Assembly: GCA_043746875.1 (NCBI GenBank)
Contig: JAYTQE010000046.1
Span: 1 to 50,422, forward strand
Length of the DNA stretch: 50,422 nt
Direction of reading: 5' to 3'
DNA from: Minisyncoccota bacterium
GTDB lineage: Bacteria; Patescibacteriota; Minisyncoccia; Phycocordibacterales; UBA9973
How positions within the stretch are numbered: the first letter of the stretch is position 1; the number at the start of each line of letters is the position of its first letter. A program made the position numbers and the translations under genes. Under the pieces are notes generated by a model that was not told the origin of the DNA, did no database searches, and saw only the letters and a list, made by a program, of their open reading frames with translations. Of this stretch, positions 3,307 through 35,520 are shown piece after piece.

Positions 3307-3380
3307 TCCGCCCTCATGGATTCGAACCATGGACCCCAGAGGTATAAGCTCTGTGCTCTAACCAACTGAGCTAAGGGCGG
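3307..3380 (-). tRNA. tRNA-Ile with anticodon UAU (reads AUA); no encoded CCA
   Basis: The reverse complement folds as a canonical 74-nt cloverleaf. Acceptor is CCGCCCT/AGGGCGG (7 bp), D arm GCTC-AGTTGGTTA-GAGC, anticodon stem CAGAG/CTCTG with loop C-T-TAT-A-C. Variable loop is GGGTC, T arm CATGG-TTCGAAT-CCATG, discriminator A. Confidence 0.8.
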
Positions 3381-6387: not shown

Positions 6388-6774
6388 GGGGATGTTTGGT
6401 ATCGATAGATAATATCGAGCCTGCATGCATACCAAGCATAGACGTACTCTTGTAAATCGTCGTCTAAAGGATATCTGGAAACAGTACCGCTAAGGTAAAG
6501 TCTCCATACTTCAGTATGAACTTTGCTCCAGCATTCGCCTAAATTTAGGCCAATCTGGTGTCACTATATTTGATACTCAATAAAATAATAGTGGCAACAT
6601 ATCATTGAGTGTAGGTAGATTATCTAGTCTCAAATAATCACCCAATAAAAGAGACTCGGGAGTTATTCATTTTGTATTTTTTTATAGAATAACCCTCCAA
6701 AATAAAATAATACTAAGTATGTAGATTTGTTTGTTCATATTTTCTACACGGGGGTTCGATTCCCCCCATCTCCA
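6388..6774 (+). ncRNA. ssrA: tmRNA (ssrA), one-piece, no encoded CCA
   Basis: 5' GGGGATG pairs with 3' CATCTCC, including the G3-U70 wobble that is the Ala identity element. T arm is GGGGG-TTCGATT-CCCCC, discriminator A. Conserved GGTATCGA and GCATGC boxes lie near the 5' end. In-frame tag ORF 6477-6542 reads GNSTAKVKSPYFSMNFAPAFA-stop (resume codon position not certain). Confidence 0.85.
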
Positions 6775-6828
6775 CTGTTAAAACATTAGCACCCTAAAAA
6801 GGTGCTTTTGTTTTTCAGTGGAGATGGG
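6765..6828. repeat. 13-bp perfect inverted repeat: tmRNA 3' end cccatctccactg (6765-6777) and cagtggagatggg (6816-6828)
   Basis: Direct reading; the arms bracket the tmRNA terminator hairpin. Confidence 0.9.
6788..6815 (+). terminator. tmRNA terminator
   Basis: agcacc-ctaaaaa-ggtgct followed by tttgttttt. Confidence 0.75.
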
Positions 6829-29986: not shown

Positions 29987-30232
29987 ATGGCAAAAGAATG
30001 CGCAATAACTAAAAAATCGTCACAAATGGCTGGAGGTTACTCTACTAAAGTTCGTGCTACCAAGTTTAACCCGACAGGTATGACTCGAAAATATGCTAAC
30101 TTACAAAAAAAGCGTATTTTTGTTCCAGAACTAAACAAAACTCTAGTTATAACTATCTCAACTCGAGGAATGAAAAATATTCAAAAAAATGGAGCTTATA
30201 AGACGCTCAAAGAGGCTGGTTTAGTTAAATAG
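29987..30232 (+). CDS. rpmB: 50S ribosomal protein L28
   Basis: MAKECAITKK....G..........R...NLQ.KR; 81 aa. Confidence 0.85.
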   Translation: MAKECAITKKSSQMAGGYSTKVRATKFNPTGMTRKYANLQKKRIFVPELNKTLVITISTRGMKNIQKNGAYKTLKEAGLVK

Positions 30233-30243
30233 ATCTAGCAAAT

Positions 30244-30271
30244 AAAAAACACCTTGCGCAGGTGTTTTTTT
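30244..30271. terminator. Bidirectional terminator (rpmB / RT operon)
   Basis: acacct-tgcgc-aggtgt flanked by an A-run and a T-run. Confidence 0.8.
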
Positions 30272-30273
30272 AT

Positions 30274-31482
30274 TTACTTTACTATTTTATAGAAATGATC
30301 AAAAGTTTTTTGAAATTCATCTACTAAATAAGTATTATTTGTAAACAACGTATCTTCATCATTTCTATAAAAACCAGAAGCAGTCCAATTATTTGTTCCA
30401 AAAACAACAATTTTATTATCAACAATCATTACATGATGATGTAAAAAGATACTAAAATCAGATCTTTGTTTAGATTTATCTATCAAATTATCTAACTTTG
30501 TATCAAATAATATTTGTAAATTATCTATTTTTTGTTCAAATTTTATTTTTTCTAATTCACTAATAACTGAATTTTCTTTATAAGCGACAAAATCATCTAC
30601 TATTAAATTAATAGAGACTCCTGTTTTAGCTTTTTTAATTAAAATATTAGCAATATCTTTATCTGTAAATTGCCACATAAGTATATTAATATTATTTTTT
30701 GAAGAATCTATTATTTCAATAATTTTTTCTTTACTAGAATTCATATTTAGTCCTGGTGACATCCAAATATCTAGATAACTATCTGTATATTTAATATGCT
30801 TAAGCCATGGATTGTAAATTGGGTTTTTTAACTTTTTTGTTCCATAAAAATTATTTTTTAAAAAATCAAATTCTTTGACATAAGATTCTATAATATCAAC
30901 ATCTTTTGTTACTAAATAAAAACTTTGTTCATAAAGTTCACCTTTGTCTGTATAATTTATAGAACCTGTTATCATTTGTTGATTGTCTAGACCTTTATCA
31001 ATTATTAATAATTTATGATGCATATACTCTGCATTTTTATTATTTTGAGGATCAAAAAAGCCTGTATCTATCCGGACAATATCCTTAGGCAATTTTATAA
31101 AAAAAGCATCGTGTTTTAACTTACGAGAATAATCCAAAACCAGTGTAACCTTTACCCCTCTTTCTGATGCCCTATAAATAGCATCTCTTATTTTATAAGA
31201 ATAAAAAGAAAACATAACTATATCTATCGTTGACTTAGCACTATCTATCATCTCAACAATATTATTTAAATATTTTTTATCTTCAAGTTCATTATTAAAA
31301 AAAATCTTTGTATCCATTGGTGTATTTTTATAAACAACAACTTGTGGAGTAGCTACAGTAAACCTTAAGTTAAAATCAACTTCTTTGAGATACAGGTATG
31401 AAATATATTTAGTGATAAGTATAAAAAAAATACCTAATACAAAATATATTATTATATAATTATATTTTTTTAATATTTTCAT
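30274..31482 (-). CDS. Membrane-anchored phospholipase D superfamily protein with two HKD-type motifs (last gene of RT operon)
   Basis: N-terminal TM helix YIIIYFVLGIFFILI. Motif 1 is HHKLLIID...GSINYT (canonical HxKxxxxD...GSxN). Motif 2 is HHHVMIVD...GTNNWT (His at the Lys position). ATG 31482 is preferred (track TTG 31494) and overlaps the upstream gene by 23 nt. Confidence 0.75.
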   Translation of the reverse strand: MKILKKYNYIIIYFVLGIFFILITKYISYLYLKEVDFNLRFTVATPQVVVYKNTPMDTKIFFNNELEDKKYLNNIVEMIDSAKSTIDIVMFSFYSYKIRDAIYRASERGVKVTLVLDYSRKLKHDAFFIKLPKDIVRIDTGFFDPQNNKNAEYMHHKLLIIDKGLDNQQMITGSINYTDKGELYEQSFYLVTKDVDIIESYVKEFDFLKNNFYGTKKLKNPIYNPWLKHIKYTDSYLDIWMSPGLNMNSSKEKIIEIIDSSKNNINILMWQFTDKDIANILIKKAKTGVSINLIVDDFVAYKENSVISELEKIKFEQKIDNLQILFDTKLDNLIDKSKQRSDFSIFLHHHVMIVDNKIVVFGTNNWTASGFYRNDEDTLFTNNTYLVDEFQKTFDHFYKIVK

Positions 31483-33184
31483 TTTTGATTTCAAAAATAG
31501 AGGTGTAAGCTAATAAATTATTATTATTTCTTGCAAATAATATAATCGTAGAGTCTTTTAAATTTTTATCTAAATAAGATATCATTTCTTTTATTTCTTT
31601 ATAATTAATATCTATCCAGATATTATCTATAATAATAATACTTGGTTTATTCAATAAACAATAGGCTATCTGAGCAGTAAATAATAATGTTTGATTATCA
31701 ATCAATGTGTACAAATTTTCTCCTGAGAATTTTTTTCCGGATAAAAGAGGTTTAAGTAATGGGTATTGTTCTATAAGATTGACAATTTTATCTATATCTT
31801 GTGTATTTATATCTTCTTTGTCTTTATTAAGAATAATCTCTCCTATTGTTTTGCTCGATGAAAATTTTGGAACAAAAAAGTATTTGGACTGAAAGATATC
31901 AGACCAGTTATTATAGGTGAATCTAATTTTATCTATTTTGACCACCCAGCTATGTCTAGAGAAAAAACCATTACCTGAAAATAACCTTGCCAAAGAGGTT
32001 TTGCCTGCAAACTTTTCTCCAAAAAAAAGAATTCTCTCTTTTTTATTGAAATCTATAGATATTTTTTTGAAGTAATTCCCATGTTCATGAATCTTTACCT
32101 TATTTGATCTAAAAGATATTTTTCCCCAGTCTTTATTAAATGGTTCTAATTTTTTTATCCCATATTTAGGTATACAAGATCTTAATCCCAGTTTAAGTGG
32201 AATATAATAAAGTCCAACCCTAATGCTCAAATAGAAAATTCTAAGCATATATAAGTAAAAAAATCCTTTTAATAAAGATAAATTTTGAGATACTGCACTT
32301 ATATCTATTTTTTTATTTTTAGATAATAAGAAAAATATCGACAAAACAATAGCAAAAACAATAGTTGCGGCTCTACCAGAGAACCTCAACCAAACGTCTC
32401 TTCTTATTCTGAAGAAAGTATCAACATTTACTATGTTTTTAAGTTTCTCATTTATTTTTTTAAATTCTGAAAAATTTTTTAATGAATCAAAATCAAATAT
32501 AGATCTAGAAATGTGCTTAAAAATAGCAGAATAAGACGACACCTCTTTAGATATAAGATATTTTGATACTAAATAAGAAGCCATCATAAAAGCCAAACTT
32601 CCAAACAATATAATGGGAATATACAGTAGAAATTCTAAACCTAGAAATAAAGCAATAATGGTTAGAATAGAAAATGACAAAATAAAATATACAAAACCAA
32701 CGATAGAGTTATCAAGCCCCATTGATACAAGTGATAAACTATATGATATTTTAGTAAAAAAACCGGCCCTATTTTCATAATCTGCTTCTGCTATATTTTT
32801 ATCAAAAAATGTAGCAAATAAATCAGCTCTTAATTTATTAATGAATGTTAAAACTAGAAGTCTCTCATATTTAATAGATAAAAATAGTCCTCCTATATAA
32901 AAACATGCAATTGATAAAACTATCATAGGCATAGTCAATCTGTATCCTAGAATAAATAATAGGTAATCAGAAGATATATTTTTTATTGCAAAAAATAACG
33001 ATGCCTCAATTAATCCTTGAATAATTATAAAAAAAATAGCTAGACCGATAATCTTTTTAGTTTTTTTTATAAATCTTTTTATATAATCAATTCTTTTTTG
33101 TTTATCTGTATCAAAATCTTCAATTGATTGTTTTATTTCTATTCTTTTTTTATAAAGCAAAAATTGCTCTCTATCTTTATTCAT
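31460..33184 (-). CDS. ABC-exporter-like membrane protein with degenerate nucleotide-binding domain
   Basis: About six hydrophobic segments are followed by an NBD. Walker A is intact (GEKFAGKTS). The Q-loop Gln is absent, the signature LSGGQ position reads IDNQT, Walker B is IIIIDN (no catalytic Glu), and the H-loop position reads FARN. Confidence 0.7.
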   Translation of the reverse strand: MNKDREQFLLYKKRIEIKQSIEDFDTDKQKRIDYIKRFIKKTKKIIGLAIFFIIIQGLIEASLFFAIKNISSDYLLFILGYRLTMPMIVLSIACFYIGGLFLSIKYERLLVLTFINKLRADLFATFFDKNIAEADYENRAGFFTKISYSLSLVSMGLDNSIVGFVYFILSFSILTIIALFLGLEFLLYIPIILFGSLAFMMASYLVSKYLISKEVSSYSAIFKHISRSIFDFDSLKNFSEFKKINEKLKNIVNVDTFFRIRRDVWLRFSGRAATIVFAIVLSIFFLLSKNKKIDISAVSQNLSLLKGFFYLYMLRIFYLSIRVGLYYIPLKLGLRSCIPKYGIKKLEPFNKDWGKISFRSNKVKIHEHGNYFKKISIDFNKKERILFFGEKFAGKTSLARLFSGNGFFSRHSWVVKIDKIRFTYNNWSDIFQSKYFFVPKFSSSKTIGEIILNKDKEDINTQDIDKIVNLIEQYPLLKPLLSGKKFSGENLYTLIDNQTLLFTAQIAYCLLNKPSIIIIDNIWIDINYKEIKEMISYLDKNLKDSTIILFARNNNNLLAYTSIFEIKNENIKKI

Positions 33185-33192
33185 AACAATAC

Positions 33193-34404
33193 TTACTTTT
33201 TAAATTTTTTATTATAATGATTATATAATGAATCTATTTTATTATACCTAAATAATTTCTCTGTTTCTCTTCTATTTTTTTCTGAATATTTATCAAAAAA
33301 ATATTTAGTTATTATTCTATAAAATTTTTCAGAAAAATTTAATATTTGATTATCGTCATCTATTAATTTTTTTTGTTCTATAATTTGCTTAAACTGTATA
33401 AAAATACTATTATAATTACTTTCAAAATTAAGGCTAAAATGCTTCTTTTTTCTTAACTTATTACTACCTGGATATCTATATAATGTTTTTTTAAGAGAAC
33501 TTATAATTTTAATGAGAGAATTTTCATTTACGCCTATTTTATTATTTTTAAATCTATAACCTAAAAAAACAAAAGGTTCTTTATCTGATATAACCTTTAA
33601 TTTATTTTTATTAAGAATTAGTTTTTTTTCTTTTATCATTTTACTTAAGGTTTTTTGTAGACTCAAAATCTTATTTTTATCTTTATCAAAAGCAATCATA
33701 TCGTCTCCTACTCTCCGATAAAAATCAACATACTTCCCTGCTATTTTATCAAAATCATCCATAAATAAATTTGATAATAAGCCAGAGATAGGAGTTCCTG
33801 TCATTAAACCTTTATTGATTTTTATTAATTTACCATTTTCAAAATATGAAGATTTGATAAAAATTTCAATCAAATTTTTAGTTTTTTGATCTAAACAAAT
33901 TTTATCTAAACTAGATATAAGTAATTCATGATCAATAGAATCTGTATAATCTGAAAGGTCTGCTACCAATATGTGATTGGATCCATAAAACCTTTTATAC
34001 CTACGAATAACACTTCTAGATGCATAATAAGCTGGGTGAGACTTTCTGTATGAATACAAAAAATCAGATAAATATTCATCAAAAAATGGACTTACTACTC
34101 TATATATAGCCTCTGCTCTTATTCTATCTTTTATAGAAAAAATATATATGGATCTATATTTGCCAGTTTTTTTGGGAATCAAAATTTTAAATGGAGGATT
34201 AGTTGGTTTTAAGTTTTTTATTTCCTCTTCGACAATTTTTATTATTTCTTTTGAGGAATAATTTATATTGTTTATTGAAACACCGTCTACTCCTTGTAAT
34301 GTACTTGATTTAGATTCTTCATCAACCTTTTTTAAAAGTTCAAAATATGCACTGACTATGTTGTCATGATCTAGTATTTTATCAAAAAGGTTATTCTCTA
34401 GCAT
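33193..34404 (-). CDS. Reverse transcriptase (stand-alone RT domain plus ~100-aa helical C-terminus)
   Basis: The RT motif series is present in order: LIPKKTGKYRSIY (1), SIKDRIRAEAIY (2), SYRKSHPAYYA (3), ILVADLSDYTDSI (A), GLMTGTPISGLLSNLFM (B), YRRVGDDMIAF (C), LNKNKLKV (D), FVFLGYRF (E). Confidence 0.85.
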   Translation of the reverse strand: MLENNLFDKILDHDNIVSAYFELLKKVDEESKSSTLQGVDGVSINNINYSSKEIIKIVEEEIKNLKPTNPPFKILIPKKTGKYRSIYIFSIKDRIRAEAIYRVVSPFFDEYLSDFLYSYRKSHPAYYASRSVIRRYKRFYGSNHILVADLSDYTDSIDHELLISSLDKICLDQKTKNLIEIFIKSSYFENGKLIKINKGLMTGTPISGLLSNLFMDDFDKIAGKYVDFYRRVGDDMIAFDKDKNKILSLQKTLSKMIKEKKLILNKNKLKVISDKEPFVFLGYRFKNNKIGVNENSLIKIISSLKKTLYRYPGSNKLRKKKHFSLNFESNYNSIFIQFKQIIEQKKLIDDDNQILNFSEKFYRIITKYFFDKYSEKNRRETEKLFRYNKIDSLYNHYNKKFKK

Positions 34405-34411
34405 ATATACT

Positions 34412-34622
34412 TATAGTACGATCCGAGCATAATAGATACCAAGCGGCCTATTATAAATTGAATAAAATTTTCAGTCGGAAGCGATCCCCGCAAGGGGGTC
34501 GTGGAGGACTGATGCCTTTTAGATGAATTATTTCACCCAAATTGTTGGTATTAGGCAACTATAAAAATTTGGGCCCATAATTATTAATACTCACTTAAAA
34601 GTGTTTCTCTGATCGTACTATA
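34412..34622 (-). ncRNA. Candidate RT-associated structured ncRNA (retron msr/msd-like or DRT-type template RNA)
   Basis: Perfect 12-bp inverted repeat tatagtacgatc (34412-34423) / gatcgtactata (34611-34622) encloses 187 nt with hairpins at 34536-34573 and 34471-34512. It ends 7 nt before the RT ATG. A minus-strand TATAAT at 34647-34642 lies upstream. Stops occur in all frames. Confidence 0.5.
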
Positions 34623-34653
34623 AATATACAGCACTGTTTGATTATACTATATA

Positions 34654-35520
34654 TCAATTACTTTTATACCATTTTAGTCCGTCAGTATAAAATGAGGTTG
34701 TTCCTTTTTCTATTGTTGAAATTATGGGAATATTAAGAGATTTTAATCTTTCTATAATTTCTATATTTGGATGACCATAATTATTCTTGACTCCAGCTGA
34801 TATCAAAACTAAATTAGGAGATACACTTTTTAAAAATTCCAAACTAGATCCAGTTTTTGACCCATGATGTGAAAGCTTCAAAATATCAACATTTATTTTT
34901 TTAGGAAAATTATTAACTAGAAAATGCTCAATATTCGCTGGTGAGTCCCCAGTAAAAAGAGCTGATCTTTGGCCAATATCTAATCTTCCAACAATTGAAG
35001 CATTATTTGTCTCCCAGTTGTCTGTTGGTCTATTTGGGAAAATTATAGAAAACTTTGTAGGAACTGATGTCGAATTATTCAAGGTTAAATCCATACCACT
35101 TCTTGCATAATATGAAGGTATATTTTTTTTATTAAGATCAAAAAAAAGATTTTTAAAAGTCTCTGTATCTGTCGATACTTGTGATGTAAGAAATAATCCT
35201 ACCTCATAATGTTTAAGAACAGATTTTATACCTCCTATATGGTCTGCGTCTGGATGTGTTGCAATAATTACCTCTATAAATCTATCTCCTTTTGGCATAA
35301 CACTAGTAAGACCTGAAAGAACCTTTGAATCTTTACCTGCATCAATAAGTAATTGAACACCATTTGATGATTGAATTAAAAAACTATCACCCTGCCCTAC
35401 ATCAATCATAGAGAATCCAGAATTATTTTCATTTTTGCTAGATCCAAAAAATAAAAATACTAAAATTAGAATACTTAAAAATAAACTAAGTATAATCAAA
35501 TTTCTAATCTTTCTATCCAT
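34654..35520 (-). CDS. ComEC C-terminal-type metallo-beta-lactamase-fold protein with N-terminal membrane anchor
   Basis: IDVGQGDS, HPDADHIGG, LSHHGS, NNYGHP motifs are typical of the ComEC/Rec2 MBL domain. N-terminal TM helix LIILSLFLSILILVFLFF. Confidence 0.75.
   Translation of the reverse strand: MDRKIRNLIILSLFLSILILVFLFFGSSKNENNSGFSMIDVGQGDSFLIQSSNGVQLLIDAGKDSKVLSGLTSVMPKGDRFIEVIIATHPDADHIGGIKSVLKHYEVGLFLTSQVSTDTETFKNLFFDLNKKNIPSYYARSGMDLTLNNSTSVPTKFSIIFPNRPTDNWETNNASIVGRLDIGQRSALFTGDSPANIEHFLVNNFPKKINVDILKLSHHGSKTGSSLEFLKSVSPNLVLISAGVKNNYGHPNIEIIERLKSLNIPIISTIEKGTTSFYTDGLKWYKSN

Follow-up and report, generated by a model that had tools for sequence, protein, structure and literature searches.

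A clade of reverse transcriptases like those of group II introns, with an unusual active site, encoded with a pseudoknotted RNA and two membrane proteins, predominantly in CPR bacteria

Prokaryotic reverse transcriptases (RTs) dedicated to a non-coding RNA (ncRNA), such as those of retrons, DRT2, DRT9 and DGRs, have repeatedly given new biochemistry and new tools. Here we describe an RT gene and its surroundings on a 50,422-nt contig of a Minisyncoccota bacterium (GenBank assembly GCA_043746875.1, contig JAYTQE010000046.1), the whole of which is called the window below. The RT lies between a structured RNA and genes for two membrane proteins, one resembling an ATP-binding cassette (ABC) exporter and the other belonging to the phospholipase D (PLD) family.

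Two described groups are the natural points of comparison. RTs that are closest to those of group II introns and come without an intron RNA are operationally defined as group II-like (G2L) (2021 review of prokaryotic RTs). UG26, in Class 2 of the UG/Abi RTs, occurs as a stand-alone gene or with a Vsr-like endonuclease, and no ABC protein, PLD or ncRNA has been reported with it (Mestre et al., 2022). In the GsI-IIC RT of a group II intron, the aromatic ring of F143 stacks on the sugar of the incoming dNTP and excludes rNTPs, a steric gate said to be conserved “in all RTs” (Lentzsch et al.). An F143A mutant of this enzyme retains primer extension, with weakened dNTP binding and non-templated addition, and a single change from YADD to YIDD retunes the G2L4 enzyme.

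Against this background, three elements of the present system are new, in that we found no prior description of them: an active site that departs throughout a clade from two near-universal RT features (the aromatic residue of YxDD, followed by Ala, Met or Val, and the aromatic steric gate); a pseudoknotted RNA, supported by covariation, that combines an unchanging scaffold with a hypervariable insert; and a conserved pairing of RT and ABC exporter across two deep clades. Candidate RT systems are few in the ultra-reduced genomes of the Candidate Phyla Radiation (CPR), and this is one of them, taking up 1% of a 0.49-Mb genome.

Active site and class of the RT

The RT gene and its catalytic motifs are located as follows.

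33193-34404, minus strand: RT gene, 403 aa; its clade is group II intron-like and unclassified (from the open reading frame (ORF), Pfam, the 6ar1 alignment, AlphaFold2 and Foldseek)
33960-33940, minus strand: motif A, D149-L-S-D-Y153-T154-D, with T154 (33945-33943) at the steric-gate position
33801-33796, minus strand: motif B, T202-G203
33711-33700, minus strand: motif C, V232-G233-D234-D235

The motif strings of the RT are LQGVDGVSINN (RT0), ADLSDYTDSIDH (motif A), GLMTGTPISG (motif B), YRRVGDDMIAF (motif C) and FVFLGYRF (motif E), and the kilobase that holds the gene is the GC minimum of the window (20%, against ~30%). Positional homology was set by aligning a profile of 53 relatives of the RT to the sequence of the GsI-IIC RT (6AR1), an alignment that is gap-free at the motifs. 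Motif A, ADLSDYTD, stands opposite M-D138-L-E-K-F142-F143-D, with T154 as the counterpart of the steric-gate residue F143. Likewise, RVGDD of motif C stands opposite RYADD, with Val for Tyr and Gly for Ala, and the Thr of GLMTG in motif B is opposite the Gln of PQG; motif E has FLGY opposite FLGF, and RT0 has GVDG opposite GIDG.

These residues could be followed through a family. A search of 5.8 billion proteins returned ~54 clusters of 400-430 aa at E-values of 1e-52 to 1e-131, after which the next matches (E 1e-30 and weaker) were group II intron RTs and a group resembling UG26. Scanning GTDB at one genome per species gave 74 RT loci, whose 74 RTs were scored for their motifs. Motif C is [VIL]GDD in all 74 (VGDD in 67, IGDD in 4 and LGDD in 3), and therefore RVGDD in the window is neither chance nor a sequencing error. 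The steric-gate position is Ser in 45 RTs, Thr in 13, Ala in 6, Cys and Met in 2 each, and Gly and Lys in 1 each, with Phe in 4/74; it is thus non-aromatic in 70/74 and Ser, Thr or Ala in 64/74, and the residue just before it is aromatic in every member (Tyr 66, Phe 7, Trp 1). Motif B reads QG in 46/74 and TG in 13/74, with Ile, Ser, His, Ala or Val ahead of the Gly in the remaining 15. [VIL]GDD and a small gate residue are the signatures of the clade; TG is a variant of QG that belongs to a sub-clade.

A preliminary description of this ORF, made from the sequence alone, had drawn attention to several of these features, and every motif string that it quoted is present in the minus-strand ORF. 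The Gly ahead of the catalytic DD proved to be a family-wide trait, and the FLG form of motif E, the lack of the retron VTG signature and the RT0 segment were likewise seen. The replacement of QG by TG is true of this RT but does not hold as a trait of the clade. The change at the steric gate, T154, was not among the motifs listed there and is added here.

Invariant positions of the 53-member alignment are D149, Y153, G233, D234, D235, K268, R84 and R94. The enzyme looks active, because the catalytic Asp triad, the Lys of motif D and the finger Arg residues are all present and invariant in the 53 sequences. The clade's substitutions in the nucleotide pocket likely change nucleotide handling, in view of the published F143A and YADD/YIDD data. 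The preliminary description had raised altered handling of dNTP or template as a possibility, to which the missing gate aromatic adds weight.

For classification, the RT was compared with profile models of the named RT families, with these scores.

TIGR04416 (NCBIfam group II RT/maturase): 145 bits, cut-off 300
retron_St85_RT (retron St85 RT): 48.7 bits, cut-off 235
Drt2: 52 bits (5e-14), cut-off 390
Drt3a: 55 bits, cut-off 200
PADLOC generic RT: 1.7e-42
PADLOC UG26: 7e-39, 131.7 bits, profile positions 39-313 of 398
PADLOC RT-Cas1: 6e-33
PADLOC UG17: 3e-29
PADLOC Drt9: 1.6e-26, partial profile

The RT matches RVT_1 of Pfam at 3e-23, and it and some of its relatives also give weak RdRP_1 matches across the palm. 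None of the 53 family members reaches the curated threshold of the group II, retron, Drt2 or Drt3a models: the best of them on TIGR04416 attains E = 9.8e-46 (~155 bits against the 300-bit cut-off), and only 22/53 match the retron St85 model at all. As a yardstick, a true Drt3a family member scores 297 bits on its own model. UG26 is the highest-scoring specific PADLOC model, and the UG26, UG17 and Drt9 models all match the RT only in part. The best sequence match of the RT profile in the PDB is the GsI-IIC RT (E 1.7e-36), with G2L4 weak at 1e-9, and the fold agrees: for an AlphaFold2 model made with the family alignment as input (pLDDT 88.6, pTM 0.84), the best Foldseek match is the full-length GsI-IIC RT, with a template modelling (TM) score of 0.74-0.79 (0.78 for the best match). 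DRT9 comes second (0.60-0.65), then a DGR RT (0.63) and G2L4 (0.70), with retron Ec86 far lower (0.44).

The marks of a group II intron itself are missing. The GIIM domain (PF08388) was found on none of the 54 family clusters, which carry PF00078 only; PF08388 was present on the true intron RTs that this search also returned. The predicted RT fold nonetheless superposes on the thumb region of GsI-IIC. No Rfam intron family was detected in the window at gathering score, nor around the ORF at E<=1, and the ORF has 8 nt downstream to the next gene and 250 nt upstream. The RT is present as a single copy in its 0.49-Mb source genome. The only Rfam families that reach gathering score in the window are a tmRNA (6388-6777, plus strand, 99.8 bits) and a tRNA (3307-3380, minus strand). 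With intron RTs as its best match in sequence and in fold, no detectable intron RNA, a single copy and no GIIM domain, the RT therefore fits the operational definition of G2L. Judging by profile scores, motifs and fold, we assign it as group II intron-like and place it within no named family. By the same kind of comparison, UG26 is the closest named class to the clade, because a sister clade (P0055-P0064), the nearest out-group, matches the UG26 model along its full profile (positions 41-396) at 162-198 bits.

Several other identities were considered and set aside. A group II intron or its remnant was rejected for the lack of intron RNA, the lack of GIIM and the single genomic copy, and membership in UG26, UG17, DRT9 or RT-Cas1 for scores that are partial or low throughout; the neighbourhoods of the family's RT loci showed no cas genes. 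A retron identity was rejected on the profile scores (49 against 235 bits) and by the weakest rank in the fold comparison (TM 0.44 for Ec86, against 0.78 for GsI-IIC). The same figures bear out the proposal of the preliminary description that this is a separate clade with a non-retron set of motifs, and its substitutions did not turn out to be those of a well-characterised family to which the RT belongs, no member reaching a curated threshold. The retron-like genomic context that it saw is correct as to an upstream RNA with terminal inverted repeats, but otherwise the locus has a pseudoknotted ncRNA, an ABC-like gene and a PLD gene.

Structured RNA upstream of the RT

The intergenic region ahead of the RT holds the following elements, all on the minus strand.

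34404-34630: ncRNA of ~225 nt, directly upstream of the RT, knotted and supported by covariation
34630-34607 (5' arm) and 34427-34404 (3' arm): closing helix P1, which ends on the A of the RT ATG
34603-34592: hairpin P1a, preceded by the AAAC junction
34590-34585 with 34553-34548: pseudoknot helix P2
34582-34577 with 34531-34526, and inner part 34573-34566 with 34543-34536: P3
34559-34556 with 34547-34544: P4
~34511-34472: variable GC-rich hairpin
34470-34453: A/U-rich single strand
34452-34431: hairpin P5

The 250-nt intergenic sequence folds with a minimum free energy of -76.2 kcal/mol (z = -6.6), and 0 of 200 shuffled sequences were as stable. A P1 helix of 12-33 bp that encloses 170-300 nt just upstream of the RT was found in 61/72 testable loci. 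Its sequences differ without relation from locus to locus, and its median helix score is 43, compared with 21 for shuffled 3' arms (shuffle maximum 29). The distance from the end of the 3' arm to the RT start codon is <=12 nt in 43 of the 61 loci. The order of elements inside P1 is constant, namely the AAAC junction, a small hairpin, P2 abutting P3, P4, the variable hairpin or hairpins, the A/U-rich strand and P5, and the hairpin loop of P4 supplies the 3' strand of P2 to form an H-type pseudoknot. The variable hairpins, of which each RNA has one or more, are hypervariable and often GC-rich or internally duplicated.

Covariation supports this architecture. RNAalifold recovered P1, P2 and P5, with compensatory changes at 21/21 pairs. 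In the full hand model of 35 sequences, 85.5% of cells are paired, compared with 66.6% in shuffles and 33-47% in slid registers, and 0/500 shuffles match the observed pairing on all five measures; across two RNA alignments, the corresponding ranges are 85-91% for the RNA and 67-73% for shuffles. A covariance model of the 5' domain only, built without P2, finds the RNA in 53/75 sources, and its match in the window lies at 34521-34612 on the minus strand (48 bits, E = 2.8e-5). P2 itself, in 56 sequences whose alignment was not fitted to it, is 99.1% paired, with double changes at 6/6 pairs. Rfam 15 gave no match to the ncRNA at a threshold as loose as E<=1.

A second complete RNA unit lies upstream in four loci (L016:937-1333, L034:5535-5934, L061:5648-5929 and L073:5406-5801). 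The two units share the scaffold (P1, pseudoknot core, A/U strand and P5) and have other variable hairpins, and these complete second units speak against the RNA being a translational leader only. In one further locus, a match to the 5' domain (L050:3821-3911) lies 2 kb upstream of the RT, with three paralogous genes of ~300-330 aa (cluster c4) in between. An endless ORF of the DRT2 type, made by rolling-circle copying, was ruled out for the family, since a stop-free frame in the circularised RNA occurs in only 3/61 loci, two of which have weak P1 scores and odd P1 positions.

Membrane partners, sister clade and accessory island

The remaining parts of the locus are as follows.

31460-33184, minus strand: ABC-exporter-like membrane protein, 574 aa, starting 8 nt past the RT stop, with a degenerate nucleotide-binding domain
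30274-31494, minus strand: tandem-HKD PLD-family protein, 406 aa, membrane-anchored, overlapping the ABC-like gene by 35 nt
30244-30270, both strands: bidirectional terminator-like hairpin AAAAAACACCTTGCGCAGGTGTTTTTT, between the convergent 3' ends of rpmB and the PLD gene
30233-34653, no strand assigned: accessory island of 4.4 kb, between rpmB and a ComEC-type metallo-beta-lactamase (MBL) gene

The 8-nt gap and the 35-nt overlap indicate that the three genes are coupled. No terminator was found between the ncRNA and the RT; the sole terminator-like site in 30100-34800 is the hairpin at 30244-30270, which is likely the end of an ncRNA-RT-ABC-PLD transcription unit. A promoter scan gave 30 sites, compared with 36.8 expected by chance. 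The order is conserved among the loci, with the RNA followed by the RT, a membrane protein of ~570 aa (58/74) and a PLD protein of ~400-490 aa (53/74). The ABC-like gene stands at +1 and on the strand of the RT in 54/74 loci, and clustering of neighbours showed that the flanks of the module are otherwise variable among the 74 loci.

The profile of the ABC-like partner matches MsbA, TM287/288, PglK and PCAT1 at 1e-8 to 5e-15, in some cases over the full length, and its Walker A motif (GK[TS]) is kept in 36-40 of 44 members, with the Lys in 36/44, and its Walker B Asp in 44/44. The PLD partner matches Pfam PLDc_2 at 1e-39 and, in profile comparisons with the PDB, Zucchini/MitoPLD, NucT and Nuc at 1e-15 to 1e-18. 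Its first HKD motif (HxK..D) is canonical and invariant, and its second is HxH(x)4D in 45/45 members. All 45 have one N-terminal transmembrane helix, and the N-terminal flank of this helix is the more positive one in 42/45, from which charge bias the catalytic domain is predicted to face outward (N-in/C-out).

The sister clade P0055-P0064 shares much of this. Its motif C is [YF]GDD or VGDD, its motif B is [A/T/S/Q]G and its gate is mostly Thr or Ser, so the unusual residues of the predicted active site typify a wider, poorly studied lineage that includes this clade. In 5/5 sister-clade loci examined, a canonical ABC exporter of ~610-620 aa directly adjoins the RT (four convergent, one divergent), and one locus has a PLD as well. 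This exporter keeps Walker A, Walker B and the catalytic Glu, and it is homologous to the ABC-like partner in the window over 519 columns (hhalign 99.2%, E = 9e-20). A homologous exporter beside the sister-clade RTs suggests that RT and ABC exporter are an old functional pairing, of which the version in CPR appears to be derived. The covariance model of the ncRNA 5' domain found no RNA beside the sister-clade RTs. In our targeted literature searches, we found no description of an RT-ABC exporter pairing; the 2021 review of prokaryotic RTs has no mention of “transporter” or “phospholipase”, and the 2022 UG/Abi survey has none of “ABC” or “PLD” (Mestre et al., 2022). In three sister-clade loci (L085, L086 and L087), the convergent RT and exporter genes overlap at their 3' ends by ~70-150 nt, and in another (L089) a PIN/PhdYeFM toxin-antitoxin pair adjoins the exporter.

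The block of 4.4 kb is an accessory island, sited where gene content varies. Its GC content is 20-25%, compared with ~30% in the flanks, and in four same-genus genomes the order is rpsL-S2P-rpmB-(gap)-MBL-SOD-ComEC-RNaseH, with the RT block absent and the gap (0.5-0.8 kb or 2.5 kb) filled by unrelated small genes. These empty sites identify the block as an accessory island of which the upstream MBL gene is not part. The rpmB/MBL site (L081-L084) has different small genes in each of the four genomes and acts like an integration hotspot. In 100 further genomes from the same family, among them six of the same genus, no copy of the RT turned up, and a sample of 400 genomes of the phylum gave one weak, intron-like match only. 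A housekeeping gene of the lineage is thus ruled out by the sporadic distribution together with the empty sites, and the MBL gene (34654-35520, minus strand) as part of the module by the retention of MBL-SOD-ComEC in same-genus genomes without the RT block. The matches of this MBL gene to the PADLOC models “RT-associated MBL”, LmuA and Avs1a (6e-24 to 4e-26) are a false lead for defence annotation. A phage-borne element was also rejected, as there was 1 match in 2.9 million IMG/VR contigs and no close match in 50,697 phage records.

Beyond this genome, 41 of the 74 loci are labelled as named CPR lineages, 2 as Omnitrophota, 1 as Longimicrobiales and 21 by unverified “Gammaproteobacteria” labels of metagenome-assembled genomes, and the RT family is thus predominantly from CPR (Patescibacteria), not provably exclusive to it. 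Members with non-CPR labels that have the RNA include two from Omnitrophota (L003/L004) and one from a 2.96-Mb Longimicrobiales contig (L023; CBDFMQ010000002.1), which also has the PLD gene. The latter is GC-rich, and if the labels are right, the family is not confined to Patescibacteria. Some small genomes have 2-3 diverged copies of the whole module (L019/L021/L036; L039/L052; L047/L054; L018/L031; L016/L030; L020/L046), whose RTs are 31-41% identical to the query and whose P1 sequences are unrelated.

Proposed function and comparison with known systems

The identity of the clade, the conservation of its motifs and of the operon, the structure of the RNA and the status of the block as an island were observed; binding of the RNA by the RT, cDNA synthesis and a role in defence are what we infer. 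In this proposal, to which we give a probability of about 0.6, the RT is the core of a four-part module (ncRNA, RT, ABC-like protein and PLD) that serves as an ncRNA-guided, probably defence-type accessory system. The ncRNA and the three genes would be made as a single transcript, in which the P1 closing helix may mask the translation start of the RT and so couple RNA folding to RT translation. The RT would bind the conserved scaffold of pseudoknot and P5 and copy part of the ncRNA, most likely the hypervariable region, into cDNA. The resulting ribonucleoprotein might then control or feed the ABC-like/PLD membrane pair, which, by analogy with retrons and DRTs, would be the effector of an anti-phage response of the abortive-infection type.

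A number of observations weigh against this proposal. We could identify neither a template nor a priming site in the ncRNA, and the position of P1 over the start codon in 43/61 loci would equally fit a purely regulatory leader. In the ABC-like partner, the catalytic Glu is replaced by Asn in 39/44 members, and neither the LSGGQ signature nor the Q-loop Gln is present; with catalytic Glu and signature motif missing, the protein is therefore no ordinary pump. A PLD that faces outward would be unusual for an abortive-infection nuclease and would fit a surface or export function equally well. Known defence genes do not consistently adjoin the 74 loci, and the PADLOC matches of the partners are generic (a DrmC-like PLD and a weak mad8).

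The membrane proteins could instead point to the envelope, with a product of RT and ncRNA being passed to the ABC-like exporter and processed outside by the PLD, or with the pair remodelling lipids, in either case as part of an episymbiotic lifestyle. The deep conservation of the RT-ABC exporter pairing in two RT clades, the intact ATPase motifs of the sister exporter, the predicted N-in/C-out orientation of the PLD in 42/45 members and the nearest solved relatives of the PLD, which include Nuc and NucT (secreted or periplasmic) and Zucchini (a cardiolipin hydrolase anchored in the membrane), would all suit such a role. However, the very sporadic, island-like distribution is unlike that of a lifestyle function, the ATPase of the exporter is degenerate in the CPR clade, and we know of no precedent for the export of RT products, so we regard an envelope role as rather unlikely. 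Somewhat less likely still is a change of substrate chemistry, in which the clade would polymerise rNTPs or mixed rNTP/dNTP chains, or would have so weak an affinity for dNTPs that it acts as a sensor of the nucleotide pool. Such a change would account for the Ser, Thr or Ala opposite F143 of GsI-IIC in 64/74 RTs, the GDD-type motif C and the frequent replacement of the motif B Gln; it agrees with the effects of F143A on dNTP binding and of YADD to YIDD on G2L4, and with the weak RdRP_1 matches and the [YF]GDD and Thr/Ser gate of the sister clade. The neighbouring aromatic residue, present in 74/74, may however take over the role of the gate, QG is kept in most members, and the overall fold is that of a normal RT. 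Combining the two ideas, clade and sister clade together might be gate-less polymerases of RT fold that make RNA or mixed polymers from the ncRNA, or sense nucleotide pools, with an ancestrally obligatory ABC exporter and an extracellular PLD. We consider this combination doubtful; if true, it would mean a new kind of system derived from RTs, in which what the polymerase makes is linked to a membrane translocator, in place of an abortive-infection device that acts in the cytoplasm. The departures in the active site open sugar and nucleotide selectivity to a direct test.

Two further explanations concern the RNA. It could be a cis-acting leader through which the RT autoregulates its translation, comparable to the action of group II intron RTs at domain IVa, while the RT acts elsewhere, for example in repair like G2L4. 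The closeness of the P1 3' arm to the RT start in most loci, the lack of a terminator between RNA and RT, and the group II intron-like nature of the RT speak for a leader, but complete second units without a following RT start are found in four loci, a pseudoknotted scaffold of ~200 nt with a hypervariable insert goes far beyond an operator hairpin, and the conserved membrane partners would be left unexplained, so we think a leader very unlikely. Finally, the locus might be a retron or a decaying group II intron, as the long inverted repeats that close the RNA recall a1/a2 of retrons and the RT resembles those of introns. We give this hardly any credence, considering that scores on the retron profile models fall well short of the cut-offs, that the retron ranks last among the fold matches, and that the window has no Rfam intron domains, the RT no GIIM and only a single copy, and the sequences show strong purifying conservation.

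The defence-type module that we favour resembles several known systems, each in part. With group II intron RTs and G2L, the RT has in common an N-terminal extension that contains RT0 (GxDG), an FLG motif E, and a thumb and C-terminal region that are helical; it differs from group II intron RTs in having [VIL]GDD for YADD, a small gate residue and a Gln that is often replaced, and from both in having its own unrelated pseudoknotted ncRNA and membrane partners. UG26 proteins are of similar size (~400 aa) and, like the RT here, have no fused domain, whereas the present RT is flanked by ABC-like and PLD partners and an ncRNA. DRT9 (UG28) and DRT2 (UG2) also have a structured ncRNA ahead of the RT, which is required for function in those systems, and an RT-ncRNA particle would be the working principle of all three. 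In contrast, the present RT scores low on their models, its RNA is unrelated (no Rfam match), and DRT9 and DRT2 have no membrane partners. Like the module here, retrons have an upstream ncRNA with pairing ends and an internal hypervariable hairpin, with the RT and then effector genes following. The RT here, however, is not of retron type, the core of its RNA is a pseudoknot, unlike msr, and no conserved branching-G context was seen at the AAAC junction that follows the 5' arm.

Among the partners, the ABC-like protein shares a full-length profile and a membrane topology with type I ABC exporters (MsbA, TM287/288, PglK and PCAT1), from which it differs in that its catalytic Glu has become Asn (39/44) and the signature and the Q-loop Gln are gone. 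The PLD protein belongs to the same branch as Nuc, NucT and Zucchini and matches them in topology, but it is a pseudo-dimer in fused form, and HxH takes the place of HxK in its second motif (45/45).

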